In this document: piece by piece, positions 251 through 15,227 of the stretch
Numbering within the stretch: position 1 is the stretch's first letter
Layout: every line of letters begins with the position of its first letter
Source of the DNA: Candidatus Komeilibacteria bacterium
GTDB lineage: Bacteria > Patescibacteriota > Patescibacteriia > UBA1558
Assembly: GCA_024654345.1 (NCBI GenBank)
Contig: JANLIN010000056.1
Coordinates: 1 to 21,118 of the forward strand
Direction of reading: 5' to 3'
DNA length: 21,118 bases
Translations under genes and position numbers: made by a program
Notes under the pieces: model-generated
What the model saw: the letters and a program-made list of their open reading frames with translations, nothing else
The model's database searches: none
Told to the model about the DNA's origin: nothing

Positions 251-1075
251 TTATGATATTCCGTTTTCGCCGCGTTCTTCCTTTTGCACCAGACTGGTGC
301 GCAAAGCGGCAAAATCGATGGTTTTTAAAAATCCTAGAGTCACTGTTTTATCAGTTGGCTCGACTTTAACTCGTCTGACGTTCGCAACAGTCTGCAGACG
401 ACCGTCAGCGTAGCCGTTGACCGCCGTCCGTGAATCAATATCAATCACTATTGTCTGGGGTGAAACAATATCACAGGGATAGGCTCCAGTGGCGACGCCA
501 GCCACCGCCCAGCTATTGGAATCAAGAGGCAAAACTATGGCACTACCCTTAGACTTAAGCGCGTACGCAGTAGTGCCTTGCGCCGTGGCGATGATAATTC
601 CATTACCGTTAACGCGGCGATTGGGAAAGTGGCTTAGAGACCCGCGGATCGTGAATGTATTGTAGTCAGCTATATCACTGCCACAGAAAATATCATTGAA
701 GGCAAGGTGCTCGATCTCTCTACCTTGTTGATCAGTAAAAGTGACCTTGATAAGATTGACGGCTATCTGATTTAGCTCCGACAAATGTGTCGGGATTTGA
801 CTGATATCACTGATCGGGTTCAGCAGGAAGCCGAGGCGACCCCGGTTTATCCCGAAGAAAACTTTTTTCGACTGGTAGTATTGCCGACAAGCGTGCATAA
901 ACCCACCATCTCCCGTTGCTACTAGAAAGGCATTGGCCTTGTCCGGATTTTCAGTCACCACGCCGCTGGGAAGAAGGTAATCACGGACCCAGGCTCTGAC
1001 GTCCGCGCTTCGCTCGGCACCGGTGTCTTCTTCCGGCGGTAGAATGGGGTAATAAATTAATCTGTCATCGTTCAT
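251..1075 (-). CDS. nadK: NAD+ kinase (NadK/PpnK)
   Basis: 274 aa with a GDGG motif (LVATGDGGFMHA) and a TAQGTTAYALKSKGS segment resembling the NAD kinase GGDG / TPTGSTAYS motifs. An AGGAA RBS lies upstream. The gene sits within the NAD cluster. Confidence 0.75.
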   Translation of the reverse strand: MNDDRLIYYPILPPEEDTGAERSADVRAWVRDYLLPSGVVTENPDKANAFLVATGDGGFMHACRQYYQSKKVFFGINRGRLGFLLNPISDISQIPTHLSELNQIAVNLIKVTFTDQQGREIEHLAFNDIFCGSDIADYNTFTIRGSLSHFPNRRVNGNGIIIATAQGTTAYALKSKGSAIVLPLDSNSWAVAGVATGAYPCDIVSPQTIVIDIDSRTAVNGYADGRLQTVANVRRVKVEPTDKTVTLGFLKTIDFAALRTSLVQKEERGENGIS

Positions 1076-1176: not shown

Positions 1177-1875
1177 TTAGGAATTACGCTCTTTTTGCAG
1201 CGTTTTCCAGAATGTCTTCGCCGCCGTGACAAAAGAGCTAAACTCTTTTTTCAGTTGCGCCAATTCAGGACGCTTCTCTAATATCTCGCCCACCTCGGCT
1301 AAAGTCTCCCGAACTTTGGCTTCGGTGCCGGTAGTCAACAGCAAGGATAATCGTTTACGACTCAAGAACCAGCTCACCAAAGCCATTGTTTTGGCATCGT
1401 TGAACGTCATATTCACCACCTCACGGCAGGAGATTACGTGTCGCCGAATATCTTCACCGCCTTCTGTCTGATAATGGTCGCGAGCGGACAATCGACGACT
1501 ATCTACTTCCACATAGGCCAGATAAGCGGCTCCTGAAACTATCCCTGGCGATAGAGATATCGGAGAACCATCATTAACGATCACAACTTCAGCTTCGGAT
1601 AGTTTGAGACCAATTTCTTCCTCAACCTCCTTAACCGCCAGCTGCTGAATAGTATAGTTGCCGTCAAAGCGGCCGGCGACTATTTCCATTGAATCTGGAT
1701 CGTGCTGGTGCTGTCCGTATTTCTTGGCCGGCCTTTTCTGCTCTATAAAGACAAGGCAATCCAAGTCTTTCAGATATACCAACACCGCCACGGCGTCTGT
1801 ATCGCAAACCACGGTATCGCCGCTTTTTTCATCACGGACGACTTTTATAAAATCGTTTTTGAATAAATGTTCCAT
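1177..1875 (-). CDS. Nudix hydrolase (ADP-ribose pyrophosphatase-like)
   Basis: Nudix box AGRFDGNYTIQQLAVKEVEEEIGL (G-x5-E-x7-REV-x-EE-x-G). The ORF track starts at 1884 (MRIMEHL), but the second ATG at 1875 (MEHLFK) has a better-spaced AAAGGA SD, so the true start may be 1875 or 1884. Confidence 0.7.
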   Translation of the reverse strand: MEHLFKNDFIKVVRDEKSGDTVVCDTDAVAVLVYLKDLDCLVFIEQKRPAKKYGQHQHDPDSMEIVAGRFDGNYTIQQLAVKEVEEEIGLKLSEAEVVIVNDGSPISLSPGIVSGAAYLAYVEVDSRRLSARDHYQTEGGEDIRRHVISCREVVNMTFNDAKTMALVSWFLSRKRLSLLLTTGTEAKVRETLAEVGEILEKRPELAQLKKEFSSFVTAAKTFWKTLQKERNS

Positions 1876-1947
1876 AATTCTCATCCTTTCTTTTTTTGTG
1901 AAATGAACGTGCTTTTGCTTATGACAATCATCTATAATATAAATGAC

Positions 1948-1985: not shown

Positions 1986-3284
1986 TTAATAAACACAGGC
2001 CTCTTCAAACTTGTTCTCATAATGCACAAGTTTTTTATACCTGGCTATTTCGTCGGGATCGCCGGTGGCCTTGGCAATATTATCACTCAGCTTGACCAGC
2101 TTGCAACCATTCGCCTCTGTCGGCTTGATTACGATCGAGAGCGGATTTAGCCCCAGAAAATCGAAAGTAAGATTGGTACCCCAGCCATTACCAATATTTA
2201 TTAGTCGGGCGTACTTCTTATACAAACTGATCATGAGGGGAAGTTTTAGACCGTCGCTATAGAAAAGCGTCTTACGATTGCTATCAATCTTCCGTCGCTT
2301 GTAGTGAGCGATCACTTTTTCACTATATTGCGCCGGGTCACCCGAATCCTGTCGAAATCCCAGCCATTGCTGGAAATCATTGTCTTTCATATTATGAAAA
2401 AAATAATCACTTCCGTATGTGTCTGTCGGTGGCACCATGCGATCAAATCCGTACATCGCCAGCCAACGATCCATAAATTCACGCTGGGCTTGAGACAGAT
2501 CTCCACCCGCCGCCAATTTCAAACCGGCAATAACCATCTGCGGCTCATGTGCCGACGTACCGCGCGGTATCAGGGAATCTTCTTTGGCAATAAAGACATT
2601 GGACGTACCCTGGAAGTTTTCCGGTAGCGCTCTGGCCACAGTATTGGTAACATATCTCTGCCACTCGGGATGAAAAGCACGGCGCGTGCCAAAATCCACA
2701 AACGGCAATAAGTATGGATAATTCTGCTCTTCGGACCACTGATTTAGACTACGAAGATCGCTTATTTTTGCTTTCAGCCGCGCTATACCGTTCTTGATTA
2801 GAGATTCTTTTTGGGAAATCGTCATCTCCTTCAGCCACGCCTGGCAAGCCAACGCGTTCACTATCTGCAAGGCCGGTATTTCCCAGTACGTTGATTGCTT
2901 CCAAGCCTGTGAGAATTCCAGCTCTAGCTGTCCGTCCGGCGATATCTCCAAATTATAATCTGACCACTGGAAATTTTTCAGAAATTCCAGGTATCCCGTG
3001 GTATCTGACAGATTCTCACCCCTTACTATGTTACCGATATATGCCACCTCGGCCGCTGTCGGCAGTACTGTTTTGACGTGGTCGAGCTCTTCTTTCAATC
3101 GGCCAATATCTATCAAGCGCCCCAGCTTCACCGCCGTCGTCCGGTTGATAAAGCTGGAATTTGTCTCGACATCTCTGTACCATTTATGGATGAACTGCCC
3201 CATTGTAAATTTGTACATATCAGTCTGTAGAAAAGACTTAATTATCGGCTCGTCCACCGTTTTTAGGATTTTATCTACTATCAT
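1986..3284 (-). CDS. pncB: Nicotinate phosphoribosyltransferase
   Basis: 432 aa; the N-terminal FLQTDMYKFTMGQ matches the NAPRTase hallmark (TDxYKxTM). Length is typical. The start overlaps the upstream gene's stop (ATGA), indicating translational coupling. Confidence 0.8.
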   Translation of the reverse strand: MIVDKILKTVDEPIIKSFLQTDMYKFTMGQFIHKWYRDVETNSSFINRTTAVKLGRLIDIGRLKEELDHVKTVLPTAAEVAYIGNIVRGENLSDTTGYLEFLKNFQWSDYNLEISPDGQLELEFSQAWKQSTYWEIPALQIVNALACQAWLKEMTISQKESLIKNGIARLKAKISDLRSLNQWSEEQNYPYLLPFVDFGTRRAFHPEWQRYVTNTVARALPENFQGTSNVFIAKEDSLIPRGTSAHEPQMVIAGLKLAAGGDLSQAQREFMDRWLAMYGFDRMVPPTDTYGSDYFFHNMKDNDFQQWLGFRQDSGDPAQYSEKVIAHYKRRKIDSNRKTLFYSDGLKLPLMISLYKKYARLINIGNGWGTNLTFDFLGLNPLSIVIKPTEANGCKLVKLSDNIAKATGDPDEIARYKKLVHYENKFEEACVY

Positions 3285-4138
3285 TTTGCCACTCCTGTCT
3301 TGTCATGAATTTCTGTATAGAGAGAGGTGGAGAAGGCACAGTGTGGAGAAAGAATTTGTCGCGCAATGCTGGTAATTGTACCTGTCAAATAACTTGACAG
3401 AACTTTCCACTGATCAGCGCCGTCAATCATCCCTAGACGCGTCGCCACCAAATGTACTCTTTGTTCAAAAACAGCCACGGCATCTTCTATTTCACCTTTC
3501 GCGCCTAGTGCGGGCGGTCCCCCATTGGTTGATATAGTTCTTAACACGTTAACCGGCACGAAATGCTTCAATTTCTTAAAAACAGCGTCTATATCATGCA
3601 TGAAAGAATGCAAACGACCATTAGCGCCAATGAGAATATCCAAAGAGTCCATAAAACTATCGGCATAGCCAACCATACTGGCGGCCACATATACCGGGAC
3701 ATCATCGTCTTCGACGTACATCATAAAATGAGGGCAGCTGTGTCCTAAGTGAGGAATGTTCAGACGACGAGCCACTTCTATTGCAACCGCGTCCACACCC
3801 ATATTCGAAGCGCCATGCGCTATCCGTACGTCTATTCCGGGGAATTCGGTCTGAAGTACCCTGATGCAGTTCGCCAACAGCGATTTACAAGCTTCTTCGT
3901 AAGCTCCAACTTTTACACCCCAGACAGCGCACTGATCAGCCGATAGATGGCTATACCCATTCATTCCTAAGACTATCGTATCCTTGCCCTCCAGATGTTG
4001 CCTAGTGGCTTTTTCGTATTCTTCCGGAAAGAAGATCGGCTTGCGCGTAAAAATTCTTTTCCGCCCATTATATTCTACAACCACGCCTCCTTTGACTTTT
4101 TTAATGGATCCCAGTTTATCGGCCTTATTCTTTGCCAT
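3281..4138 (-). CDS. Conserved hypothetical Rossmann-fold protein, possibly SLOG-superfamily (DprA/LOG-like) nucleotide-processing enzyme, co-translated with pncB
   Basis: 285 aa starting at MAKNK, with a GTGAGG RBS 9 nt upstream; I prefer this start to the track's 4189 start. The segment RIAHGASNMGVDAVAIEVARRL resembles the DprA/SLOG glycine-rich Rossmann motif (SGxAxGxDxxAHxxAL). It overlaps the pncB start by 4 nt. Confidence 0.45.
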   Translation of the reverse strand: MAKNKADKLGSIKKVKGGVVVEYNGRKRIFTRKPIFFPEEYEKATRQHLEGKDTIVLGMNGYSHLSADQCAVWGVKVGAYEEACKSLLANCIRVLQTEFPGIDVRIAHGASNMGVDAVAIEVARRLNIPHLGHSCPHFMMYVEDDDVPVYVAASMVGYADSFMDSLDILIGANGRLHSFMHDIDAVFKKLKHFVPVNVLRTISTNGGPPALGAKGEIEDAVAVFEQRVHLVATRLGMIDGADQWKVLSSYLTGTITSIARQILSPHCAFSTSLYTEIHDKTGVAK

Positions 4139-4237
4139 AGTAAAAACCTCACTTCCTAAATTGTGTTTATTAATAATATTAATGTACATACTTCTTAAGA
4201 AGCTTGGTCCGAAATAGTTCAGACAAAACTTTTTAAG

Positions 4238-4271
4238 CGGGATAAGTGATGTTTAACATCGCCTTATCCCG
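4238..4271. promoter_or_regulatory. Nested hairpin CGGGATAAG-[TGATGTTTAACATCGC]-CTTATCCCG downstream of pncA
   Basis: 9-bp outer stem and an inner GATGTT/AACATC stem. It may be the pncA terminator or an attenuator; only a weak T-run follows. Confidence 0.4.
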
Positions 4272-4276: not shown

Positions 4277-4984
4277 CTAACCGATCAGTTCTCGGGTAGT
4301 CGTGAGTCTCACGCCAGCCGTTTTGAAAAACATATTCATTTCCTCATGACCCGCCTCGTCTCCCAAATCCTGCGTGGCATCTTTTACCACAGTCACCTGA
4401 TAGCCAAGGTCTGCTAAATCCAAAGCCGTCCAACCAACACAATAGCGATATACCAGCCCACAGACAAATATTTTTTTCGGGCGCATCTGCTTAATAATAG
4501 GTAAGAGGACTAGCTCACGTCCGGCATTGTCTCTCACGGCGCTATAAGAATCACGCGTCGGCTCCAATCCTTTCCTTACTACAACGCCATCGTATTCAGC
4601 AAAGGCCTGATGTTTTCCGGCTTCTTTACCTAGGCCATGATCCGGCCATAAGGTTTGATGATGAATTCTACGTAAGTAAAGTTTGAGATCATCGACGGTA
4701 AATTTAGCCTTTGGTCCTATTTTGCTATCTTCTTTCGTCCACTGCGCCACTTCCTCGTAGGTAAGCACGTAAAAATTCGGTAAGTCGACGTATGAACTGG
4801 CAAAAGATATATGACCAACCTCATGTACATCTAGCGTGAATACTCTCTTATCCTCCGGGAAAAGCGGTAGGATTCTCTTGATAGGTGCAATCACTTTGTC
4901 GCCACCTTGTACAGCTAATCCGCCACCCGGCATGAAAGTGAGAGTAGCATCTATCACCACCAGTGCGTCCTGTCTTCCTATCAT
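4277..4984 (-). CDS. pncA: Nicotinamidase (isochorismatase family, PncA)
   Basis: 235 aa. It has ALVVIDATLTF (catalytic Asp region), a metal-binding DVHEVGH (D-x-H-x3-H) and the catalytic Cys context FVCGLVYRYCVGWT. An AAGGAG RBS lies upstream. Confidence 0.75.
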   Translation of the reverse strand: MIGRQDALVVIDATLTFMPGGGLAVQGGDKVIAPIKRILPLFPEDKRVFTLDVHEVGHISFASSYVDLPNFYVLTYEEVAQWTKEDSKIGPKAKFTVDDLKLYLRRIHHQTLWPDHGLGKEAGKHQAFAEYDGVVVRKGLEPTRDSYSAVRDNAGRELVLLPIIKQMRPKKIFVCGLVYRYCVGWTALDLADLGYQVTVVKDATQDLGDEAGHEEMNMFFKTAGVRLTTTRELIG

Positions 4985-5059
4985 TGGCTTTCAGCTCCTT
5001 TCTGTTTAATCAATGAACTACACTCTTTAGCAATTAGAAACTCTGCTCCTGAAAAGCAG

Positions 5060-5088
5060 TGCTTATAGCTGTTAAAAAGCCTTGTCAA
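5060..5088 (-). promoter_or_regulatory. Putative sigma70 promoter for pncA (-35 TTGACA, -10 TATAAG or TAAGCA)
   Basis: On the minus strand, TTGACA (complement of 5083-5088) is followed 15-17 nt later by TATAAG/TAAGCA, about 80 bp upstream of the pncA start. Confidence 0.4.
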
Positions 5089-5120
5089 ATTCCGTAAAAA
5101 TTAACATTAAATAGAATTTA

Positions 5121-5157
5121 TGTCAACCCCAGTCATGTTTAACACGACCGGGGTTAA
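5121..5157 (-). terminator. Stem-loop downstream of the vWA gene (AACCCCAGTC...GACCGGGGTT, loop ATGTTTAACAC); possible terminator or regulatory hairpin
   Basis: A 10-bp stem with one G-U pair lies about 20 nt after the vWA stop. The T-run is imperfect. The loop shares the ATGTTTAACA core with the hairpin at 4238-4271. Confidence 0.35.
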
Positions 5158-5177
5158 CTTGAATGAAAAAAGTGCGT

Positions 5178-5966
5178 TTAGTTGCCGAAACCACCCATGG
5201 CGGCCTGGCTGAAATTGGCGGCTGATTGACTGGCGCGAACTGCCGATTGAGAGAAAAGCAGGAAGGCCTGGCGAATCTCTTTCTCTGTATTCTTCGGTGT
5301 CAGGATCCATTCATCAGGTATGCCCATGTCCGAGAATACCCGTTGGAAATCCGTACTACCATCATCAATGCCCATCGCTGCCACGATATGCATCTCTGTT
5401 TTTAACATGTCCTTCACCACCACCGCCACATCCTTGGCGCTGTACTTACGCGAGTGCTGATCACTGCCGTCGCTGATGATAAGCGTGATGGTGCGGGCCG
5501 GGACGCCATTGTCGGAGAATTCCTGCGCCTTGGCCAGAACAGTACCCAGTAGTACTATCGTCTGGTCATAGAGTGGGGTGCCCTGGTCAGGATTGTAGTT
5601 CTGAGTATCCATTATTTCCGCTTGTTCCACCATCGTGTACGGGTAAAGGATCTTCCCGTTTAGATAGCGATTATGCGCTAGTATATTGTCTTTCTGTTTA
5701 GAGGCGCGCAGGGAATTGAGTACCAGATTGTGACCGTTCCTGACCGCGGCGGCATTGCCGGCGAAACGGATAGACCCGGAATCATCCGGCATCATGCTTA
5801 CCAGTATTACCTCGCTGGCTTCAACATCGTCGACGGCCACGCCCAGCGCCGCCTGTATTTCGGCGCCGATATCCAGGACATTTAGTATCTGCTCAGATTG
5901 GGCGGACAGATTACCGTCTGCTTTGGCGTTGTTCACCAACTGACTTACTTTGCTTTGCTTGTTCAT
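5178..5966 (-). CDS. von Willebrand factor A (vWA) domain protein, TerY-like
   Basis: 262 aa from MNKQSK, with a strong AGGAGG RBS; I prefer this start to the track's upstream-extended 6128 start, which overlaps the previous gene. The MIDAS motif DDSGSI (DxSxS) and a second ISDGSD are present. The C-terminus has a Q/S-rich tail. Confidence 0.75.
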   Translation of the reverse strand: MNKQSKVSQLVNNAKADGNLSAQSEQILNVLDIGAEIQAALGVAVDDVEASEVILVSMMPDDSGSIRFAGNAAAVRNGHNLVLNSLRASKQKDNILAHNRYLNGKILYPYTMVEQAEIMDTQNYNPDQGTPLYDQTIVLLGTVLAKAQEFSDNGVPARTITLIISDGSDQHSRKYSAKDVAVVVKDMLKTEMHIVAAMGIDDGSTDFQRVFSDMGIPDEWILTPKNTEKEIRQAFLLFSQSAVRASQSAANFSQAAMGGFGN

Positions 5967-6042
5967 TTTGTGACCTCCTGGCTCCGACGATAGTGTCGAA
6001 GCCGTTTTTTGTGATTGAAAAATATTTTTCCGTGCTAGTGTC

Positions 6043-7086
6043 TTATAGATTGAGATCGGGCCAATCTTCCAAAGGTTGAGTCGTCTTGACGACATGCATG
6101 CCCGCCGCCGCAAAACGACGAAACGCATCGTCGGCTTGGTCGGTGAAATCTATAATACCCGGCACGACCACGGCGGAAGTACAATCTTCCAACAAGTAAA
6201 CCTTTTTGGCCAGTTCCGGATCGTGAGCTTGTATTTCATTGAGTAAGTCATCAATCGTCCAAGCCACGCAATGACTTTTGGCTTGGCCGGCAATGATAAC
6301 AGCGTCATATTTCATCAGCTTCTCAATAAAACGAGAATTACTCTGTGCGATCGGACGTCCGGTATGATCTTCCGTTATTTCCGGCTTCAAGACAGAATAA
6401 TTTTCTGTCAGTGGATTACCGCCTTTGATTTCGAAACCGGTTTGGCTGGTGCGTGCTAAATTGTGAAAGAAAACAGCTTCTTCGATAACCGCCGTCAGAG
6501 CGTGACCAATACCACCCAGCATGGCGTGGTAGGTCCAGATCATCAACGGATATTTTCCGTCTGCCGTCAGCTTGGCCACGTAGTGGCGCGCATATTTCTG
6601 CAGAAAGCTGTAACTACCGGTAATACTGTTGGCGATGGCGGGGTTTACTTTCCATATGCCCTTCTCAACATCCGTCAGCGTAATGATGGTTTGATTCCCG
6701 ATCGGATGTTCGCCCTGATCATTGATCCAAAACACCGGATGAAAGATTTGCATGGCGGTATGAGTGTCCATTGTCGGATCTATCTCTGTAATAACGCCTA
6801 GATAGCGATAGATGAATTCCGCCAATCGGACATTATCTTCGATGGCGCCCTTGCCACTGCGCCCCCCTACAAAAAGTTCAAAATCCGGGAGGCAGAAAGT
6901 ATTCTGCGCGTCTATTACCATCAAGCAGAGACGCGTCTTATCAACGGCGGCTTTCTTGATCTTGTGTTTGTCGGCCCATTCTCTGGCATCACGCGCCCGC
7001 TGTTCGTACGGAACTCTCCAGACACTATCGGCTTTGGACGCATCAAAGTGCTGAGGAATGGGTAATTCGTGGACTGATCTTTTCAT
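6043..7086 (-). CDS. Large nicotinamidase/isochorismatase-family amidase paralog
   Basis: 347 aa. Motifs are CLMVIDAQNTFC (catalytic Asp), DTHTAMQIFH (D-x-H-x6-H metal site as in nicotinamidases) and AGQAKSHCVAWTIDDL (catalytic Cys). About 150 extra residues lie between the metal site and the Cys relative to canonical ~190-aa enzymes. An AAAGGAG RBS lies upstream. Confidence 0.7.
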   Translation of the reverse strand: MKRSVHELPIPQHFDASKADSVWRVPYEQRARDAREWADKHKIKKAAVDKTRLCLMVIDAQNTFCLPDFELFVGGRSGKGAIEDNVRLAEFIYRYLGVITEIDPTMDTHTAMQIFHPVFWINDQGEHPIGNQTIITLTDVEKGIWKVNPAIANSITGSYSFLQKYARHYVAKLTADGKYPLMIWTYHAMLGGIGHALTAVIEEAVFFHNLARTSQTGFEIKGGNPLTENYSVLKPEITEDHTGRPIAQSNSRFIEKLMKYDAVIIAGQAKSHCVAWTIDDLLNEIQAHDPELAKKVYLLEDCTSAVVVPGIIDFTDQADDAFRRFAAAGMHVVKTTQPLEDWPDLNL

Positions 7087-7137
7087 GACTAATACTCCTT
7101 TCTAAGAGTTTTTTGTGAAGTTCGAAACTGTGTTTTT

Positions 7138-9003
7138 CTATGTTAAACGTAACAGATTTATTTCTCGACGCGATACCACGTAGAGCCCCTCTCGACCAGG
7201 ATGTAGATAAGACTGAGAGCTGACAAAGGGCTCGGTGTCAGGATACTCCTGCACGATCGCCAGGTTGTGGCCGCTTATACCAATCTTGAATATTCCTTCA
7301 TCGCTAGTCGAAAGTATTTTATCGCCGACCGGACATTTGCCGCGAATAGTACCAAGCCAACTACCATCGTCGGCTTCGGCGCTACCGATAGCGATAACGC
7401 TTCCGGCCGGCCCTATTACTTCGCACCGGTTAACGGTTTTGCCTTGAACGCGGCTACTGGTAAAAAACCAGGCGTTGTCAGCGACAAAAACAGTGGTGGC
7501 GTCGAGTAACTGACCCGTTATAGCGACCATATTTTTTACATCCTTCAATCCTTTCCGCTGATAATCAAACAAAAAGGTACGTCGGATTTCACCGGCCTGA
7601 TAAAATCCCAATCCCTGGTGTGCCCCGCTCCAAAGCAGAGTCTGATTGGATAAGGCCTGTCCCATGAATTCTTGGCCAAATTTTCCCCGGCGTAACAATT
7701 GTCCATTGTTGAGCCAAAACAGCCGGCCTGCACTGCTGTCAAACATCGGGATGTGGCGATAGTGATCCACGGCGTACTTGTTTTCTAGACGTTCCCGGTG
7801 GTATTCATGGATAACTCCGTTTAGACCCACCCAGGTAGTCTCGCCCCAGATCCGAAATCTGGCATTGGCGAAAGTTTCCGGAAAAGGTATTTTCCAACCC
7901 TCTTCTCTAACCAGTTGACCGTTTTCTCGGACCAGCCAGATTAGTCGCTCATTGTCAGTAGTAGCCTGGACAATCTGTCCTTTCGTCTGATAAAGACGAG
8001 TTGCCTTCACGGTACCGCGAATTACCGTTACCTCCCGGATAGCCGCCGGCGCCGCCGTACTACAAGTCGGACAGATGGATCGTGCGTGTTCCTGACCACA
8101 CTGCTGACAGGTAGTAAAACGGGTTAATTGCAGTAGTTTTTCCGGAAAGGGGTTTCTTTTGTCCTGGACAAATGTCTGATAAAAATAATCCAGCAAATCA
8201 TCAGAGAGAACACTGTAGTGAACCGCCGGCTTAGGATACTTTACTTCCGGATGAAAGACGGTAATCCGCTTGAGCGGACGTAGCTGATGGATTATTCGCT
8301 GTTTCTTGTCAGCCGGTCGGTAGATACCCCCATAAGGATCTACATACAGCAGACTATTCATCAGCATGACTGTAAAGGCATACCAATCCGAGGAGCTTGT
8401 AAACGGTTTGTATAGCTCGAGCGATTGGCGACGCGCGTCGGTCAGCAAAGGGTCAAGGAATTTGACAGTAAACATCCGACAAAGATAGCGTCCAAACTGA
8501 TAGCTGTCGGTATCTATCAGATAGGCTTGCTCATCTTTCACCAGAACATTCAAATCGTTAAAATCACCAACCACTACTTTCCTATCGTGCAAAGCCGAAA
8601 CAGCTTGGAGAAGCGAGCTGAATATTGTCAGTAGCGCGTTATTGTCCACTCTCCCCGGCCGGAACTTCTTGTCGCTGAAGCGCAACATTACTTCCGAGTC
8701 GGCAATGAGTGGCATACTGTAACCAACTATAAATCCCTTGCTATCTGACGCCAGTGCCACCGGTGCCACTATATTGGCCGGCAATCCAGCAGGAAAATCT
8801 GACAGTTTTGTTTGATGTTCCTCTAGCCTGTGCCGGGCCCCTTGTTGCTCCAGCGGCAGTCCGCGCAAATCGGGATGATGGGGAGACTTAAAAATTTTAA
8901 GTGCCAGTTTATCGTTTAGTCGATAAATATCGGCTTCTCCGCCCTTGCCAATGGCTTGCGCGGGAGTGATATTTATCGGATTGCCGGCTAAATAGATTTT
9001 CAT
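7138..9003 (-). CDS. Ser/Thr protein kinase-like protein with central zinc ribbon and C-terminal beta-propeller-like repeats
   Basis: 621 aa. It has a glycine-rich loop IGKGGEADIY, a Lys in ALKIFK, a catalytic loop HDRKVVVGDFNDLNVLV and LIDTDS (DFG-like). CQQCGQEHARSICPTC forms a CxxC...CxxC ribbon. Repeated W/G-rich blades follow. A GGAGG RBS lies upstream. The start overlaps the PP2C stop (ATGA). Confidence 0.7.
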   Translation of the reverse strand: MKIYLAGNPINITPAQAIGKGGEADIYRLNDKLALKIFKSPHHPDLRGLPLEQQGARHRLEEHQTKLSDFPAGLPANIVAPVALASDSKGFIVGYSMPLIADSEVMLRFSDKKFRPGRVDNNALLTIFSSLLQAVSALHDRKVVVGDFNDLNVLVKDEQAYLIDTDSYQFGRYLCRMFTVKFLDPLLTDARRQSLELYKPFTSSSDWYAFTVMLMNSLLYVDPYGGIYRPADKKQRIIHQLRPLKRITVFHPEVKYPKPAVHYSVLSDDLLDYFYQTFVQDKRNPFPEKLLQLTRFTTCQQCGQEHARSICPTCSTAAPAAIREVTVIRGTVKATRLYQTKGQIVQATTDNERLIWLVRENGQLVREEGWKIPFPETFANARFRIWGETTWVGLNGVIHEYHRERLENKYAVDHYRHIPMFDSSAGRLFWLNNGQLLRRGKFGQEFMGQALSNQTLLWSGAHQGLGFYQAGEIRRTFLFDYQRKGLKDVKNMVAITGQLLDATTVFVADNAWFFTSSRVQGKTVNRCEVIGPAGSVIAIGSAEADDGSWLGTIRGKCPVGDKILSTSDEGIFKIGISGHNLAIVQEYPDTEPFVSSQSYLHPGREGLYVVSRREINLLRLT

Positions 9004-9824
9004 GTTATTCCCCTCCTTTCCGGACCGACCTTTCGTATGACAACCAGGGTGGTGTCATCAGTTAGGTGGCCATTTTGCACTTCCATCCGGCTCTCCTGCC
9101 AGAGTGGCCGACTAACGTCGCGGTTAACCAACGTAAGCTGACGACGAACACTGTCCGGATTCTTGAAATACCGATCTTCCGTCCAGAAATTCAGCAACGG
9201 ACCGACTTCTCTGTCCTGACCGGGCACGATTTTATTGGCCGCCGCTACATAATCACCAATACCGTCAGTGGCTATCAACAGATGAGAAATGGCCGCCGTT
9301 TTTTCCTGCACCTTCATCTGCCACATAAACCGCTGATCCATGGGTTGAAATAGACCATAAGCGATGTAGGGTGGCTGATTGTCAGAAAATGGTCCGAGGG
9401 CGATATAATTGTCATTGCAGACAATTAAACCGTCACCGATTGCCGCTATGACCAGTCTATCTTCGTGGATTACCGCCGCGATAGCGGTGAATAGACCGTA
9501 GTCCTCGATGAATCTATTGGCGCCGCTAGGGTTGGGTCGTGTCAGCCAATACAACTCACGTAAAACATCCAAGCGCACGGTATCCCAGTACCGCGTGGAG
9601 CTGATATTCAGAGACAAATTTCTTTTCAGGCTGTTGGCTATCAGCTGAGCACCCAACTTGGCGCCAACTTCACTGCCGGGACTACTGCCACAACCGTCTG
9701 TCACAACGGCGATGATACTGTCATTGCCAGGCAAGATGCAGAAGGCGTCTTGATTGTTACGACCAGATTGCCGATGGTGACGTCCGATGACACTACCGCC
9801 GGCTATTTCAAACAAATCTTTCAT
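9000..9824 (-). CDS. PP2C-family Ser/Thr protein phosphatase
   Basis: 274 aa. Motifs are GRHHRQSGRNNQDAF (R-x-x-NQD), VVTDGCGSSPGSEVGAKLG (DGxGG...G) and LIATDGIGD (second metal-binding Asp). An AAGGAG RBS lies upstream. Confidence 0.75.
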   Translation of the reverse strand: MKDLFEIAGGSVIGRHHRQSGRNNQDAFCILPGNDSIIAVVTDGCGSSPGSEVGAKLGAQLIANSLKRNLSLNISSTRYWDTVRLDVLRELYWLTRPNPSGANRFIEDYGLFTAIAAVIHEDRLVIAAIGDGLIVCNDNYIALGPFSDNQPPYIAYGLFQPMDQRFMWQMKVQEKTAAISHLLIATDGIGDYVAAANKIVPGQDREVGPLLNFWTEDRYFKNPDSVRRQLTLVNRDVSRPLWQESRMEVQNGHLTDDTTLVVIRKVGPERRGIT

Positions 9825-9932
9825 GTTTATCTCCTTTTATGTATGTAGTTTTCAAAGATCTGGAACGCCTATCTCTTAGAGAAAGGATTCTACGTCAACC
9901 CGGAGTCTGGCCGAGCTGACGTTGAACTCTTT

Positions 9933-9961
9933 CTTAGTGTTAAATATACACTTACTAATAT
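9933..9961. repeat. Copy A of a ~27-bp direct repeat CTTAGTGTwAAwATATACAC..TA.TA flanking nrtR (palindromic core GTGTTAAATATACAC)
   Basis: It matches 10661-10689 in the same orientation at about 24 of 27 positions. It lies between the nrtR stop and the PP2C-kinase operon start. Confidence 0.5.
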
Positions 9962-9981
9962 GTAAAAAATTTTCTGTTTTT

Positions 9982-10659
9982 TTACAAAATATTAACCACT
10001 GCCAGAGATCGACTGGTAAATTCAAATAATGCCGCCGGCCGATTGGCCTCACCCCTTCTCTTCTTGCCGGTGGTCTTCACCAATCCTAACGACCCGACTT
10101 TTTTGCGAAAATTTCGCTTGTCGATCTCCTGATCCAAAATTATCTCGTATACTTTCTGTAATTCCGACAAAGTAAACTGCCGGGGTAACAAACTGTAAAC
10201 TATGTTGGTATAGCCGAGCTTGGAGCGCAGTCTCTTTACACCCGTCTTTAATATTTCCGCATGATCGTAAGCCAGCGCAGGTAGCTTGGCCACCGGCCAC
10301 CAACGCACGTCCGCGTATTCGGCGGTAGTCTTTAACATCAAACTTTTATCATACGGTAATAATGCGTAGTAGGCGACGGACAATACTCGACCGTAGGGAT
10401 CTCTTTTTTCCCCGCCAAAAGCATATAGCTGTTCCAAGAAAATATCAGACACGCCGGTCTTGGCCTGAAGGTGGCGACGCGCGGCTTTCTCGACTGATTC
10501 GCTGATTTTAACCATGCCGCCCGGCAAAGCCCATTTTCCTTGATAAGGCTTCTTTTTCATCTTTATCAACAGAACGTTGAGCGCCTCGCCTCGCAGGCTG
10601 AAAATAACCACATCCGTGGCGGCGGCGACAAATTTGAATTTTTGATAAGGTTTACTCAT
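9982..10659 (-). CDS. nrtR: NrtR-family Nudix-related transcriptional regulator of NAD metabolism
   Basis: 225 aa. The N-terminal Nudix fold has GKWALPGGMVKISESVEKAARRHLQAKTG. The C-terminal winged-helix region has FTLSELQKVYEIILDQEIDKRNFRKKV, typical of NrtR. It is located inside an NAD salvage cluster. Confidence 0.65.
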   Translation of the reverse strand: MSKPYQKFKFVAAATDVVIFSLRGEALNVLLIKMKKKPYQGKWALPGGMVKISESVEKAARRHLQAKTGVSDIFLEQLYAFGGEKRDPYGRVLSVAYYALLPYDKSLMLKTTAEYADVRWWPVAKLPALAYDHAEILKTGVKRLRSKLGYTNIVYSLLPRQFTLSELQKVYEIILDQEIDKRNFRKKVGSLGLVKTTGKKRRGEANRPAALFEFTSRSLAVVNIL

Positions 10660-10660
10660 A

Positions 10661-10689
10661 CTTAGTGTAATATATACACATAGTATTTC
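10661..10689. repeat. Copy B of the nrtR-flanking direct repeat (palindromic core GTGTAATATATACAC), 6 nt upstream of the nrtR start codon
   Basis: Same motif as 9933-9961. The 15-bp core is palindromic (GTGTA-ATATA-TACAC). It sits where the nrtR SD would be; nrtR has no obvious SD. Confidence 0.5.
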
Positions 10690-10769
10690 AAGTAGCGACT
10701 TTAGTCAATAGTCTCCTGTGGATAAGTAGACTACCCGTACTACCTAACCAGCATCCAACCCCAGCCCAG

Positions 10770-11285
10770 GTGACCATCGATAAACAGTTCGATCCATATG
10801 AGGGTTATGTTTCTTACTATTCCTATAAAAGACGTCACCTAATTAATTGCGACGGAAAATTATATTTCATTGCTCTCGGTCGCCCAAAGGTATCAAGTCA
10901 GAAAAATAAAAACGAAGTCGCTGATAAGCTTCACCACATTCTGGCTATACAAATTTCCCTCACCCCGGAGCAGTGGACAGGGAAGAATATAAGAGAAAAA
11001 TTAAGTGAAATTCGTCTCACCACAGCACAGAGCTATTTGACAAACATCAGCCAGCGACTAGAAAAGATGTTTGTGTTTGCCATGCGAGACGAAATTGACA
11101 GTTTTGAATCACTGGTCCAGCTGATGGGCGAAAGAGGGTATGTCATGCAACGCGGTGACTCAACAGACCTCTTGATTATTCTACTAAAAAATGAGGTGGC
11201 TTATGAGCTACGTACAAAGTCGGATAATTATTCTCCCGAAAAATTAAAACAACTTGCCATATCTCGGACTCTTGACGCTTTTTAA
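10770..11285 (+). CDS. Hypothetical protein (171 aa), divergent from nrtR; start uncertain (GTG)
   Basis: Long ORF ending directly at a strong rho-independent terminator. No recognisable motifs. No ATG near the 5' end, so the start codon is uncertain. Confidence 0.4.
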   Translation: MTIDKQFDPYEGYVSYYSYKRRHLINCDGKLYFIALGRPKVSSQKNKNEVADKLHHILAIQISLTPEQWTGKNIREKLSEIRLTTAQSYLTNISQRLEKMFVFAMRDEIDSFESLVQLMGERGYVMQRGDSTDLLIILLKNEVAYELRTKSDNYSPEKLKQLAISRTLDAF

Positions 11286-11309
11286 AGCCTCCAAAAAACG
11301 TCTACTCAG

Positions 11310-11339
11310 CCCCGTTCACAATGGACGGGGTTTTATTTT
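11310..11339 (+). terminator. Rho-independent terminator (CCCCGT-loop-ACGGGG followed by TTTTATTTT)
   Basis: GC stem plus T-run immediately after the 10770..11285 ORF. Confidence 0.7.
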
Positions 11340-11343
11340 GCCA

Positions 11344-11372
11344 TTGACATTTTTCCCGAGATATGATAATTT
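11344..11372 (+). promoter_or_regulatory. Sigma70-like promoter TTGACA-17-TAATTT for the secreted-protein gene
   Basis: Perfect -35 and 17-nt spacer, about 45 bp upstream of the AGGAGG RBS and TTG start. Confidence 0.55.
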
Positions 11373-11416
11373 GATTCATCAAGTAAAATGCTTGAATTAA
11401 AAAATCAGGAGGTTCT

Positions 11417-11995
11417 TTGAAAAAACTATTATTTACTCTCGCACTAGCTCTTGCTCTGGCTGTATCTGCTCCTCTTTTCGGACAGATGCAGAATACACCA
11501 GCACAGCTATTAACCTCATTTGGAGGTGAAAAATCCAATATGATTGGCAATCTGGGGCTAAGAGGATCGGTGACTATATTTGCCGTCCCAAACGACAATT
11601 TATCTCAGTATTTCGCCTACACCGGCCCCGTTTTCACCACAGAAGATGGTTGGTGGGTTTCACCACAGATCGGCTTGGTAACCAATTGGTTCGCCAAAGA
11701 CGGTTTCATCCTTGCTTTGTGGGCGGAAAAATCCATGGGTGAGTGGAAAGTTTTCACTGAGTCTGAATTGTACAAATTCGGCAACGAACACGATTTCTAT
11801 GGATATTATTACGTCGATTATGCTCCTAATGGCAGTCTCATCGGCGCACAAATTGAGTTCGTCAATTCAGACTTCGTAGTCGGTCCGCACTACGGCTTCA
11901 CCACCGGCGTCTGGACAGGCAAATTGGAACTATACTTTGGCTTCCAGCAGGAAAGTTGGAATGTCAGAGTTGTGAACTCATTTAATTTTCAATAA
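11417..11995 (+). CDS. Secreted beta-rich protein with N-terminal signal peptide (possible small outer-membrane beta-barrel/lipocalin-like protein)
   Basis: TTG start with AGGAGG RBS. MKKLLFTLALALALAVSAPLFGQ is a signal peptide. Alternating aromatic/hydrophilic strands end ...VVNSFNFQ. A terminator hairpin follows at 11998-12027. Confidence 0.65.
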   Translation: MKKLLFTLALALALAVSAPLFGQMQNTPAQLLTSFGGEKSNMIGNLGLRGSVTIFAVPNDNLSQYFAYTGPVFTTEDGWWVSPQIGLVTNWFAKDGFILALWAEKSMGEWKVFTESELYKFGNEHDFYGYYYVDYAPNGSLIGAQIEFVNSDFVVGPHYGFTTGVWTGKLELYFGFQQESWNVRVVNSFNFQ

Positions 11996-11997
11996 AT

Positions 11998-12027
11998 AAA
12001 GAGCTGTTTTTAAAAAACAGCTCTTCT
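11998..12027. terminator. Bidirectional rho-independent terminator (AAAGAGCTGTTTT/AAAACAGCTCTTT palindrome flanked by A- and T-runs)
   Basis: Perfect 13-bp inverted repeat with T-runs on both sides. It sits between the convergent genes 11417..11995 (+) and 12031..12861 (-). Confidence 0.7.
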
Positions 12028-12030
12028 TTT

Positions 12031-12861
12031 TTATTTATTATAACTTCCTCCTACGCTCATCACAGGTGAGGTATAAGAGATTTCTCCATATCTGGTGGAA
12101 AATAGTTTTTTTACTTTAAGCAAATGAAACAAATTGCCAATGACATTGCCCCGAAGCATACAACGCCGTTCACGACCTATCCCTCTTTCTTCTATCGCTA
12201 AGTCTTTAACACTTGCGTAACTGATGTGATAAAAAATTGTTTCTAAATTTACTTTTTCATTCTGTGCATCCTCTTCTGACTTACATTGAATTTCAAAAGT
12301 AAACAGTCCTTTTTTATTGGCAATCCGAGACTCAGCATTGATTGGCAATTCTTTTTTCTTAGCAAATACCGCCCCCAATCCATAGGCACCCAAAGTAAGC
12401 AAGGAGTATGGTATAAACTCCGATAGTGATGAAGCTTGATCAAATTGAGGGGAAAGAGAGATAGCTAAGACAAGAAAACTCACCAAAAGTGTGACACCAT
12501 TATTCAATTTAGTTGCCATTCTCCCAGCCGCAAACGCCAGTATCAAGTAGGGCCAATCAATTGCCACAACAAGAGGCGTCTGCGCAAATAATTGCTGATA
12601 GATCGGCGAGGATGAAACTACTAATGAATCACTCACTGCGGTTGAATCAACTGCGCTAACAGCCTCCGTCGTTCCGGCAACCAATCTTTCGCCATTTTCA
12701 TAAACATACACAATAATATCTGCCGCTACATCTAATATAATCCCCAAAAATACACTCTTTAACAAAACCCAAACGCTAACCAAGATCACTGAAAAAGAGG
12801 TATATCTTAAGCTGTAAACAGTTGCCAAACACCAGAGCCAGAAAATTTTTAGTCTATCCAT
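12031..12861 (-). CDS. Integral membrane protein (N-terminal multi-TM region plus C-terminal soluble domain), partner of the poly-zinc-ribbon protein
   Basis: 277 aa from MDRLKIF, with an AGGAGG RBS; the upstream gene's TAA lies between the RBS and ATG. I prefer this start to the track's 12975 start. Several hydrophobic helices are present. Confidence 0.6.
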   Translation of the reverse strand: MDRLKIFWLWCLATVYSLRYTSFSVILVSVWVLLKSVFLGIILDVAADIIVYVYENGERLVAGTTEAVSAVDSTAVSDSLVVSSSPIYQQLFAQTPLVVAIDWPYLILAFAAGRMATKLNNGVTLLVSFLVLAISLSPQFDQASSLSEFIPYSLLTLGAYGLGAVFAKKKELPINAESRIANKKGLFTFEIQCKSEEDAQNEKVNLETIFYHISYASVKDLAIEERGIGRERRCMLRGNVIGNLFHLLKVKKLFSTRYGEISYTSPVMSVGGSYNK

Positions 12862-12862
12862 T

Positions 12863-14200
12863 TTAATCCTCCTTATAATGTCCCACCTTACAGTGCGGGC
12901 ACAGTGTATATTCGATATCGCTCTCACACCAAGGACAGCTGTTTGTATCCTTATCAATAATAATAAGCTTGCCACAATCTTCGTTTGGACAAGGAGCTTT
13001 TAGCAACCCCGCTTCACAATGAGGACAGTCAGTCGCATCTGCCCAAATTAAACCGTCACAAACCGGACAACTTACTTCAACTAATGCTTTAGAACAAGTT
13101 GGACATTTTGTCTCATATGTCAAGTCTTCCTCCAAATAATGGTCGCTCCGCTTGCACAGATACAGATCTGCATTACATTCCGGACATTCCTTGTCACCAT
13201 CTATAATGACCGAATCACCACAAGAAGGGCATGGTGTTCTCTTCACCTCCGTGCCGCACTTGGAACATTTTTCCTCATCCTCATACATATCCTCGTCACA
13301 CTTTGGACAACTGTCTGGGTTGAGACTCTTAAGACAATTGGGACACGTTCCGCCATCTTCAGGATCTTGAGTTATATATTTTTTACATCGAGGACATACG
13401 TACAACGCAGAACCACACGCCGGACAGTCCTTATCTCCGTTAATAAATATATTACTAGTGCATTCCGGACATTTAGTTAGCTCCAGTTTTGTGTTGCAAT
13501 GACCACATTGACTCGAATCGGCATAAATACTAGTGCAGCAATTTGGACAAGAATCATATCTATATGTTCTTTGACAAGAAACGCACTCATCCAGTATATC
13601 CGGATTAACCGCGATAAATTCGTGACATCGCGGACAATTATACACGTCGCTGAGACAACTACCACACCGCATTTCGTTTATATCTTCTGGCGATAACATC
13701 TTTTCACAAGCAGGACATTCTTTTCTCCTATTCTCTGGCACAAAAACATCTCCTGGAATTACAGGTTCAGAATCATCATCGTAAACCCCATGGTTTCCTT
13801 GTAACTCATATTCATGCTCTTTCGATTCTCCGACATCTGGCGCAGCCCAAGGCATCTTCCACACTTCATCACTACCACTGACATATATCACGCTGTCAAA
13901 TCTTATATCCGGAAATTGCGTCGCCAGGCTATATAGCATCTGCTTTTTTTGATCATAGCCCCAGTGCTTTTCAAATTTGAAATCCGCACGTAGTTTTCCT
14001 AGCTGTTTCGAGAAAACAAAGAGTGACTTGTCCGGAAGCTCTATCACTACCTTAGAAACACCACCCAGAACCACTTTCTCCAAACGGCCTTCCATATCTT
14101 CCAATGGGTCTGACTGTGCCACTTCAGGCAAAGCGCCCTTAATAAAGTAACTTAGGATAGAGGTCACTAATCCAGGTATTGATGCTAGTACTTCTTTCAT
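12863..14200 (-). CDS. Poly-zinc-ribbon protein: ~140-aa Cys-free N-terminal domain followed by ~10 tandem CxxC-x(7-14)-CxxC zinc-ribbon modules
   Basis: 445 aa with repeated CPxC...CxxC units (CPACEK..CGSC, CPRC..CVSC, CPNC..CGHC, CPEC..CPAC, CPRC..CPNC, CPKC..CSKC, CPSC..CPEC, CPTC..CPVC, CPHC..CPNEDC, CPWC..CPHC). A GAGGT RBS lies upstream. A TTGACA-17-TAGATT promoter lies on the minus strand at about 14248-14276. Confidence 0.7.
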   Translation of the reverse strand: MKEVLASIPGLVTSILSYFIKGALPEVAQSDPLEDMEGRLEKVVLGGVSKVVIELPDKSLFVFSKQLGKLRADFKFEKHWGYDQKKQMLYSLATQFPDIRFDSVIYVSGSDEVWKMPWAAPDVGESKEHEYELQGNHGVYDDDSEPVIPGDVFVPENRRKECPACEKMLSPEDINEMRCGSCLSDVYNCPRCHEFIAVNPDILDECVSCQRTYRYDSCPNCCTSIYADSSQCGHCNTKLELTKCPECTSNIFINGDKDCPACGSALYVCPRCKKYITQDPEDGGTCPNCLKSLNPDSCPKCDEDMYEDEEKCSKCGTEVKRTPCPSCGDSVIIDGDKECPECNADLYLCKRSDHYLEEDLTYETKCPTCSKALVEVSCPVCDGLIWADATDCPHCEAGLLKAPCPNEDCGKLIIIDKDTNSCPWCESDIEYTLCPHCKVGHYKED

Positions 14201-14247
14201 TTTTACCTCATTTCTATATTGTTTTTAAATAGCCGTATTAATAGCCA

Positions 14248-14333
14248 AATCTATCCTAAAATTCTCCGCGTGTCAATAGAGAGTGAAAGTTATCCCCAGC
14301 AAACCATTGACAAAACTCAATTTATGTTATAGA
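14248..14333. promoter_or_regulatory. Divergent promoter region: minus-strand TTGACA-17-TAGATT (for the ZnR operon) and plus-strand TTGACA-15-TGtTATAGA extended -10 (for 14375..)
   Basis: The minus-strand -35 is the complement of 14271-14276 and the -10 the complement of 14248-14253. The plus-strand -35 is at 14307-14312, with TG at 14325-14326 and TATAGA at 14328-14333. Confidence 0.5.
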
Positions 14334-14374
14334 ATTCAGAATTGAATATTTATACATTAAAAAAGGAATAAAAA

Positions 14375-14875: not shown

Positions 14876-15200
14876 AGTAAATCACAATTCCGCACCGGAG
14901 AAGATCGCTGAAAAAATTCCGAGCGGAATCATGAAAATCATAGATAATGTGGGCAATACAGAAGTCACAGTTAGTGACATTCTATACGATTTAAAAGGCA
15001 CTCGCCTCAATTTTTCCTTCAAAGCTAGCTATGATGAACACTGTGTGTCAGTCAAAGGTAAGATGGATATTCTAAGAAATTGCGTTATCATGAATATAAA
15101 CTTACCAATGGTAGCACTTTTGTTCGTTAAAAGTGATGAAATCAAAAAAGTCATCACGAAAAAGCTAATTGAATTCATTCAAAACGAAGAAGCGGTTTAA
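14865..15200 (+). CDS. Hypothetical small protein (111 aa), start overlaps the previous stop
   Basis: The ATG overlaps the stop of 14375..14875, indicating translational coupling. A terminator follows. Confidence 0.45.
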   Translation: MKIKVNHNSAPEKIAEKIPSGIMKIIDNVGNTEVTVSDILYDLKGTRLNFSFKASYDEHCVSVKGKMDILRNCVIMNINLPMVALLFVKSDEIKKVITKKLIEFIQNEEAV

Positions 15201-15218
15201 AAATCGCTTCTTTTTTTC
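15189..15218 (+). terminator. Rho-independent terminator GAAGCG-loop-CGCTTC followed by TTTTTTT
   Basis: The stem overlaps the stop codon region of 14865..15200. A 7-T run follows. Confidence 0.6.
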
Positions 15219-15227
15219 AAATCCTTA

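Follow-up and report, generated by a model that had tools for sequence, protein, structure and literature searches.

The solved nicotinamidases hold their substrate in a metal-containing cavity and share a fingerprint comprised of a catalytic triad, a Gly-preceded cis-peptide with Ala in second place, a metal site of one Asp and two His, and the motif order DxH...PxH...CV (PMC3581539). NrtR operators are 21-bp palindromes with a defining GT-N7-AC core, and Pseudomonas operons of this kind have the order nrtR<>pncA-pncB-nadE (Rodionov et al. 2008, PMC2330246). The TerY-P triad is made up of a von Willebrand factor A (vWA) protein resembling TerY, a PP2C phosphatase and a Ser/Thr kinase joined C-terminally to a zinc ribbon (Anantharaman et al. 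2012, cited through PMC11090510). The present report concerns a 21,118-bp contig (JANLIN010000056.1, referred to at its full length as the window) from a Candidatus Komeilibacteria metagenome-assembled genome (MAG). On its minus strand a 347-residue protein, deposited under the name ‘isochorismatase’ (P0001, 100% identity), is encoded between a kinase-like gene and a vWA gene. This enzyme is probably a metal-dependent nicotinamidase of a long-form PncA subfamily, which would convert free nicotinamide to nicotinate in an operon presumably induced by ADP-ribose through NrtR. It adds a new member to a known kind of enzyme; its family is large, uncharacterised and missed by family models. The operon is a new variant, with a TerY-P-like triad around a nicotinamidase under predicted NrtR control.

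The literature was searched for nicotinamidases or isochorismatases associated with vWA, PP2C, NrtR or anti-phage functions, and no paper describing the operon was found. The nearest published idea is that of NrtR/WYL-regulated, ARG-centred ADP-ribose conflict systems with vWA chaperones (PMC9503650). The locus shares with the published NrtR regulons an nrtR gene and GT-N7-AC palindromes upstream of a nicotinamidase-containing operon; the PP2C, kinase and vWA genes found here are not mentioned in the text of PMC2330246. It shares with TerY-P the same three components and the same fusion of kinase to zinc ribbon, the likeness of the vWA protein being one of domain and metal-ion-dependent adhesion site (MIDAS). 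Unlike in TerY-P, the kinase has an extra C-terminal region of ~300 residues, a nicotinamidase gene lies between kinase and vWA, and the operon stands under an NrtR box amid nicotinamide adenine dinucleotide (NAD) salvage genes rather than restriction or DNA-processing genes. The PADLOC TerY-P profiles matched none of the vWA, PP2C and kinase proteins, and only weak MkoA and PD-T4-6 kinase matches were obtained.

Catalytic and metal-binding residues

The 347-residue protein has an isochorismatase-like (cysteine hydrolase) fold. Its AlphaFold2 model (pLDDT, the predicted local distance difference test score, 83.5; predicted template modelling (pTM) score 0.85) retrieved with Foldseek, in order, the nicotinamidases of A. 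baumannii, yeast, Drosophila, yeast again and P. horikoshii. A search of Pfam returned nothing at E<0.01 (PF00857 reached 14.9 bits, E=0.03, with a cutoff of 27), and there was no match in NCBIfam (including PRK11609), PADLOC or PHROGs, nor to any PDB chain by phmmer or with a profile of the close family. The profile-profile and structural comparisons are unambiguous, and the sub-threshold Pfam and NCBIfam results reflect a failure of model sensitivity.

For the profile-profile comparison, an alignment of 54 diverse family members (31-56% identity) was set against a reference alignment of M. tuberculosis (Mtb) PncA, yeast Pnc1, P. horikoshii PncA and the 235-residue PncA encoded elsewhere in the window (window PncA). 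The Mtb PncA and Pnc1 sequences were identical to 3PL1_A and 2H0R_A, and that of P. horikoshii was 1ILW residues 4-178. The two alignments were matched by hhalign with a probability of 99.5% (E 1.6e-22, 196 columns). Pnc1 alone gave the same registers (97.6%), and the match to window PncA (96.7%, 221 columns) took in part of the insert described below. Registers for window PncA were taken from hhalign, as a MAFFT alignment misplaced its WPDH motif.

The triad Asp59, Lys221 and Cys273 is thereby aligned with D8/K96/C138 of Mtb PncA and D8/K122/C167 of Pnc1, and the metal ligands D107-T-H109 and H187 with D49-F-H51 and H71 of Mtb PncA. Further equivalences to the Mtb enzyme are W184 (W68), Y230-S231 (Y103-S104), D301 (D158) and Q113, which takes the place of H57, the fourth metal ligand. 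The oxyanion element, G267-Q-A269-K-S-H-C273-V274, retains the Gly-x-Ala spacing and the Cys-Val of Mtb G132-I-A134-T-D-H-C138-V, as judged from sequence. All catalytic and metal-binding residues are common to the enzyme, window PncA and the minimal PncAs (3PL1, 1ILW), and the family as a whole has the DxH...PxH...CV fingerprint. The third metal-ligand motif has the family consensus IWPYH, and in the window enzyme it reads WTYH, with T185 replacing Pro.

Among 99 representatives extending to ~32% identity, conservation is 90% or higher at each of D59, F64, D107, H109, W184, H187, K221, G222, E228, G267, A269, S271, H272, C273 and D301, and the triad, the metal ligands, the Tyr-Ser and Gly-x-Ala elements and the F64/W184/Y230 pocket are kept in ~95/99. 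Such conservation points to selection for catalysis, although one member, P0166, has lost the Asp, Lys and Cys of the triad. A preliminary description of the window had proposed a second nicotinamidase-type gene here on the strength of its Asp, DxH and Cys motifs, and every PncA fingerprint residue is indeed present, with D59, D107/H109 and C273 in register. Its reading of the metal site stood only in part: the DxH pair is equivalent, and the further His that it probably counted, H116, varies across the 99 representatives and so is not a general metal ligand, the third His being H187.

Two other explanations of the sequence were rejected. A wrong start is contradicted by the ribosome-binding site AAAGGAG, 8 nt before the ATG, and by homologue alignments that begin at residue 1-7. 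Membership of a metal-free isochorismatase subfamily does not fit the retained Asp-His-His metal site, and such activities rank lower in the structural comparison.

Distribution of the extra length

The enzyme is 112 residues longer than window PncA and 161 longer than Mtb PncA. From the metal Asp to the catalytic Cys (D107-C273) it spans 166 residues, compared with 89 in Mtb PncA, 116 in Pnc1 and 130 in window PncA, and the excess (77, 50 and 36, respectively) is distributed among several loops. An insertion of ~150 residues between the metal site and the Cys had been claimed; the largest single insert is in fact ~58 residues relative to Mtb PncA, and it lies within the metal site, where long nicotinamidases have their lid. 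It is ~37 residues longer than the corresponding part of Pnc1 and only ~16 longer than that of window PncA, 1 kb away. The distance from the His of DxH to the Trp of W-x-x-H is accordingly 74 residues in the enzyme and 16, 37 and 58 in Mtb PncA, Pnc1 and window PncA. The inserts of the enzyme and window PncA are paired by hhalign (TLTDVEKGIW/LTYEEVAQW, HYVAKL/LYLRRI and LMIWTYH/QTLWPDH), and in the AlphaFold2 model that of the enzyme is formed by a strand (132-135) and helices (137-141, 149-155 and 159-175) with pLDDT 82-93.

The N-terminal stretch before the catalytic Asp is 58 residues long, compared with 7 in both Mtb PncA and Pnc1 and 11 in window PncA. The extension of ~50 residues has predicted helices at 16-20 and 27-40 (pLDDT 79-98) and is conserved within the close family, with P11, F14, V25, Y27 and W37 invariant. 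The remaining excess is made up by loops that follow H187, K221 and C273, together with a short stretch of ~10 residues at the C-terminal end. The extra length would thus consist of an N-terminal helical extension, an enlarged lid insert between strands 2 and 3, and longer loops. The enzyme had been called oversized, with extensions at both ends. The extensions are real (~50 residues at the N-terminus and ~10 at the C-terminus); the size is exceptional only in relation to the minimal PncAs, and Drosophila nicotinamidase has 357 residues. The long-form nicotinamidases Pnc1 (2H0R), A. baumannii PncA (2WT9/2WTA) and Drosophila Naam (9U8M) are 17-21% identical to the enzyme, which differs from them in the N-terminal extension, in the longer loops after the three residues named above, and in scoring below the PF00857 and NCBIfam PncA thresholds.

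Size and distribution of the family

A word-indexed search gave at least 8000 matches to the enzyme. The top 120 matches listed were 67-74% identical and ~347 residues long except for fused forms; they came mainly from cyanobacteria, with bacteria of the candidate phyla radiation (CPR) and Aminicenantes, and were named ‘isochorismatase’ or ‘nicotinamidase-related amidase’. An exhaustive search of 50%-identity representatives returned 2252 clusters with a threshold of E<=1e-3 and 321 with one of E<=1e-30, in length mostly 320-390 residues. The length of ~347 residues is therefore the norm for the family (about 340-380) and no peculiarity of the window gene. A species-level genome scan found the family in at least 598 species, including Andersenbacteria, Gracilibacteria, a Woesearchaeota MAG, Gemmatimonadota, Entotheonella, Actinomycetota and Bacteroidota MAGs.

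The fused forms are relatives of 582-585 residues (P0004, P0005, P0014, P0016, P0037 and P0121 among others), in which a further conserved N-terminal domain of ~237 residues (GLCGRIIRG...TWDNV...RAFLYFT.HLRELYSGDGYT), absent from the window, precedes the nicotinamidase. Searches with this domain against Pfam, NCBIfam and, by profile, PDB gave only spurious short matches. The fused forms (for example at L085:10001-11749 and L087:8001-9752) sit in an NrtR-PP2C-kinase-enzyme-vWA module, followed by cinA, NAD-kinase-like and nicotinate phosphoribosyltransferase-like genes.

More distant members, at 27-35% identity, were also found. In Paucimonas, a 289-residue member lies divergent from NrtR, and pncB, nadE, nadM/Nudix and ADP-ribosylglycohydrolase genes come after it; its position is that of pncA in the nrtR<>pncA-pncB-nadE operons of Pseudomonas. 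On a Variovorax megaplasmid (NZ_LR594667.1), an NrtR-like gene is divergent from a 290-residue member, which is followed by a 241-residue homologue of the vWA protein (hhalign E 1.6e-4), with macro, Nudix, deoxyribosyltransferase-like and NAD-kinase genes around the pair. Only Burkholderiales proteins came back when the Variovorax homologue served as query. A candidate for the ‘nrtX-nrtY’ of Rodionov et al. 2008 is the NrtR<>enzyme-vWA arrangement. Phage members were present in three uncultured phages of 460-595 kb and in one phage record of 6.5 kb; in the 595-kb phage (LR756511.1) a vWA homologue (E 2.6e-6) lies 2.5 kb downstream of the 266-residue member. As the enzyme-vWA pairing persists in these distant relatives, including the 595-kb phage, it appears to be older than the association with kinase and PP2C.

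Gene order and putative regulation

In the order of transcription on the minus strand, the genes of the window are nrtR, PP2C, kinase-like, enzyme, vWA, pncA, a 302-residue open reading frame (ORF), pncB and Nudix (Table 1). The regulator scored 157.7 bits against NF050029, under the equivalog cutoff, and is a putative ADP-ribose-responsive repressor. The stop codon of PP2C overlaps the kinase start by 4 nt. The kinase-like protein has weak Pkinase/RIO matches in Pfam and LanL, Bud32 and Kdo-kinase matches in NCBIfam; its G-loop, Lys, GDFNDLN, IDTDS and SDWYAF motifs and the CxxC...CPxC zinc ribbon are conserved in 19 homologues. The vWA protein had no Pfam or PDB sequence match; its AlphaFold2 model (pLDDT 87.7) retrieved vWA domains as all of the top 50 Foldseek PDB matches, its MIDAS residues (D61, S63, S65, T130 and D166; DxSxS, T, D) are invariant, and some relatives are labelled VWFA proteins in UniRef. 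The mechanically called ORF for this protein (5178-6128, 316 residues) overlaps the enzyme gene by 86 nt. Homologues begin at residue 55, upstream of which there is a ribosome-binding site (AGGAGG), and the true start is thus Met55, which leaves a protein of 262 residues, an intergenic gap of 76 nt and no overlap with the nicotinamidase gene.

Two copies of a 19-bp palindrome with the GT-N7-AC core were found in the window, where none is expected by chance. One precedes PP2C, and the other stands immediately upstream of nrtR and overlaps promoter-like hexamers. Among 16 related loci from other phyla, 11-12 have a similar TAGTGTA-N5-ACACTA palindrome upstream of PP2C. The PP2C-kinase-enzyme-vWA operon is accordingly predicted to be under NrtR control, through a candidate operator. 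A pattern search of the window found no NrtR box upstream of the 235-residue pncA, and a terminator-like hairpin (5043-5059) separates that gene from vWA; pncA, the 302-residue ORF and pncB therefore probably form a separate neighbouring transcription unit, outside the conserved module.

Gene order was counted in 83 loci with close relatives of the enzyme, several of them on contigs too short to show every gene. The enzyme is immediately followed by the vWA gene in 28 and immediately preceded by the kinase gene in 21-22, while PP2C is present in 16-18 and NrtR in 10-12. Examples are Leptolyngbya (NrtR, PP2C, ADP-ribosylglycohydrolase, kinase, enzyme, vWA), Aminicenantes (kinase, enzyme, vWA, NAD kinase, phosphoribosyltransferase-like, Prs) and an Entotheonellaceae locus (nrtR, PP2C, kinase, enzyme, vWA, pncB). 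ADP-ribosylglycohydrolase, macro and Nudix genes accompany relatives, and no other PncA homologue was found near the enzyme in the loci of close relatives. A functional link of the enzyme with the adjacent kinase, suggested in the preliminary description, is thus borne out at the level of conserved gene order.

In 42 of the 83 loci, each with 3 kb or more of sequence to either side, the gene stands alone with no triad gene nearby; Nostoc, Microcoleus and Calothrix are among the sources. Mean identities within and between the linked and stand-alone groups are 75%, 71% and 70%, only one position (M56/L56) discriminates kinase-linked from stand-alone copies, and no Ser or Thr is specific to the linked ones. 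The enzyme therefore appears to have no need of the triad in cis. It had also been suggested that the insert is a phosphorylation target of the kinase, an idea that the lack of a linked-copy signature would neither support nor refute.

The module occurs in cyanobacteria, CPR bacteria, a Woesearchaeota MAG, Actinomycetota, Entotheonella and Aminicenantes MAGs, and the ~70% identity of its proteins across phyla suggests horizontal spread. In the window, the GC content is 0.47-0.49 across the NAD module (4500-10000) and 0.36-0.43 in the adjacent region (10500-16000), and the module proteins are ~70% identical to cyanobacterial proteins even though the contig has been assigned to a CPR bacterium. 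Taken together, the two observations suggest horizontal acquisition, or possibly a binning problem.

Substrate and biological role

As a probable nicotinamidase, the enzyme would hydrolyse free nicotinamide to nicotinate and ammonia via a thioester on Cys273, with Asp59 and Lys221 as the other members of the triad and Asp107, His109 and His187 as ligands of a divalent metal. Free nicotinamide is the likeliest substrate because distant members occupy the pncA slot of nrtR/pncB/nadE operons. Since a candidate NrtR operator precedes the operon, induction would be expected on a build-up of ADP-ribose, the second product of NAD+ cleavage. Nicotinamide released by the same cleavage would then be cleared by the enzyme, and the nicotinate would be passed to PncB for resynthesis of NAD+. 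PncB consumes the product of nicotinamidases, and pncB adjoins the module both in the Entotheonellaceae locus and in the window.

Several observations weigh against this reading. No biochemically characterised member of the subfamily was found, Pfam and NCBIfam fail to recognise it, and it has no sequence match in the PDB. A set of residues that are invariant in the family and have no counterpart in PncA (Y169, H195, H208, R212, S271-H272 and D301-C302) could change its specificity. A plain nicotinamidase also looks redundant in the window, where a PncA-type gene already adjoins the pncB region, and tight linkage to kinase, PP2C and vWA across phyla is unexpected for a housekeeping salvage enzyme. 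The least confident parts of the model are the active-site loops (pLDDT 64-67 at 61-80 and 181-200, and <50 at 190-193), which limits statements on the shape of the pocket.

A rival reading is that the enzyme acts on a different substrate, such as an N1-substituted nicotinamide (nicotinamide mononucleotide (NMN) or nicotinamide riboside), some other carboxamide of pyridine or pyrazine, or one of the amides typical of metal-free isochorismatase-family enzymes (carbamoylsarcosine, ureidoacrylate, biuret or maleamate), with the lid and N-terminal extension forming a new pocket. The divergence of the sequence to below the Pfam and NCBIfam thresholds, the location of the invariant R212, H208, H195 and Y169 in enlarged regions, the PncA-type gene already in the window, and the CinA/PncC-type NMN deamidase genes that adjoin one relative, and place NMN metabolism nearby, are consistent with such a change. 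However, the conserved Asp-His-His site sets nicotinamidases apart from the other amidases of the isochorismatase fold, the pocket residues F64, W184 and Y230 are conserved, and the distant members stand in the pncA slot. In the nicotinamidase complexes of A. baumannii and S. pneumoniae, moreover, the metal is ligated by the free nitrogen of the ring, and a quaternised N1 is incapable of such ligation. A different substrate is therefore very unlikely, and the earlier suggestion of NMN, nicotinamide riboside or an ADP-ribose derivative is not favoured, given that the metal site and the aromatic cage are intact. The proposal that the protein is an inactive, nicotinamide-binding sensor, which would report nicotinamide to the kinase/vWA switch, would explain the tight conservation of gene order with signalling proteins and has a precedent in P0166. 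It is highly improbable, as the triad and metal ligands are kept in almost all of the diverse members, the window protein included.

It is also conceivable, if unlikely, that PncA chemistry is retained and serves a signalling or defence role, in a TerY-P-like stress or anti-phage module of PP2C, kinase-zinc-ribbon, enzyme and vWA. NAD+ cleavage would turn the module on, with ADP-ribose acting via NrtR, and a phosphorylation switch would gate the removal of nicotinamide, which could lift nicotinamide inhibition of NAD+ consumers or starve phage NAD+ reconstitution. TerY-P-like defence systems were reportedly described by Gao et al. in 2020. The vWA, PP2C and kinase-zinc-ribbon architecture fits the published definition of TerY-P (PMC11090510), and earlier work proposed ADP-ribose conflict systems that contain vWA and are regulated by NrtR/Nudix (PMC9503650). 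The cross-phylum identity and the raised GC content, the ADP-ribosylglycohydrolase, macro and Nudix genes near relatives, and the persistence of the enzyme-vWA pairing in distant members, including a 595-kb phage, point in the same direction. Against this, the PADLOC models missed all three proteins, the module has no nuclease or other effector, its neighbours (pncB, NAD kinase, prs and cinA) belong to NAD biosynthesis and fit metabolism, and about half of the close-relative loci are stand-alone with sequences no different from those of linked copies. A more specific version, that this is a previously undescribed, horizontally mobile NAD+-damage response module with an ancient enzyme-vWA core, switched on by ADP-ribose through NrtR and with TerY-P-like control of nicotinamide clearance, is doubtful. 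If it is true, clearance could speed NAD+ recovery, release NAD+-consuming enzymes or starve phage NAD+ reconstitution.

As a divergent yet recognisable probable nicotinamidase, the enzyme alone adds little, and the operon context is the more useful part of the finding: it joins a putative repressor responsive to ADP-ribose, a kinase/phosphatase pair of eukaryote-like type, a MIDAS protein and an enzyme that would remove nicotinamide. To our knowledge, post-translational control of NAD+ salvage in bacteria, including CPR organisms, is essentially unexplored, and the operon is a concrete, testable case. We know of no signals or targets of TerY-P-type switches, and the operon is a possible link between such switches and the products of NAD+ cleavage, which are central to current research into phage defence by NAD+ depletion and into phage counter-defence. 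With better family models, thousands of entries now vaguely annotated as ‘isochorismatase’ would be corrected.

Neighbouring genes in the window

The coordinates of the enzyme gene, its parts and its neighbours are collected in Table 1. The 302-residue ORF had no match in Pfam, NCBIfam, PADLOC, PHROGs or PDB and was not found beside the module in the other 83 loci; its GASNMGVDAVAIEVARRL stretch gives a Rossmann/SLOG-like impression only. The 235-residue Nudix protein and the 274-residue ORF may extend the NAD/ADP-ribose gene cluster.

Table 1. Features of the enzyme locus and its surroundings in the 21,118-bp window
Feature	Position	Strand	Basis
Long-form nicotinamidase-like gene (PncA-type cysteine hydrolase), 347 aa	6043..7086	-	ORF
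N-terminal extension, residues 1-52, absent from canonical PncA	6931..7086	-	hhalign alignments begin at 52-54
Main insertion, residues ~117-180, between DxH ligands and W-x-x-H ligand	6547..6738	-	Unaligned with Mtb PncA
Catalytic Cys273 codon, within G267-Q-A269-K-S-H-C273-V	6268..6270	-	hhalign, conservation
Candidate NrtR operator ATGTGTATATATTACACTA, GT-N7-AC core type, immediately upstream of nrtR	10663..10681	-	Motif
NrtR-family regulator, Nudix and winged helix	9982..10659	-	PF21906 86.6 bits; PF00293 62.5 bits
Candidate NrtR operator AAGTGTATATTTAACACTA, GT-N7-AC core, ~110 nt upstream of PP2C start	9935..9953	-	Motif
PP2C-type phosphatase	9000..9824	-	PF13672, 78.9 bits
Protein-kinase-like protein, 621 aa: kinase domain, CxxC...CPxC zinc ribbon, ~300-aa C-terminal region	7138..9003	-	Weak Pfam
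vWA/MIDAS-domain protein, 262 aa, directly downstream of enzyme	5178..5966	-	AlphaFold2 and Foldseek
Shorter PncA-type nicotinamidase, 235 aa	4277..4984	-	PF00857 55 bits; PRK11609 80.6 bits
302-aa ORF between pncA and pncB; stop overlaps pncB start	3281..4189	-	ORF
PncB nicotinate phosphoribosyltransferase	1986..3284	-	PF04095 150.6 bits; TIGR01514 273 bits, above cutoff
235-aa protein, weak Nudix match (23 bits), downstream of pncB	1177..1884	-	Pfam
274-aa ORF without Pfam match	251..1075	-	ORF

A short hairpin-like intergenic repeat, CTCTGATAAGCRGG, occurs at 1131-1161, 1943-1973 and 4234-4253, 3' of three minus-strand genes (the 235-residue Nudix gene, pncB and pncA), and these elements may be terminators or members of a small family of repeats. 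Genes unrelated to the nicotinamidase finding are encoded in the right half of the window (12863-20001): a double zinc-ribbon protein (12863-14200) and a histidine phosphatase (19207-20001) on the minus strand and, on the plus strand (15339-18735), a PspA/IM30-like, YqiJ-like and SPFH/Band-7 trio of the membrane-stress type.

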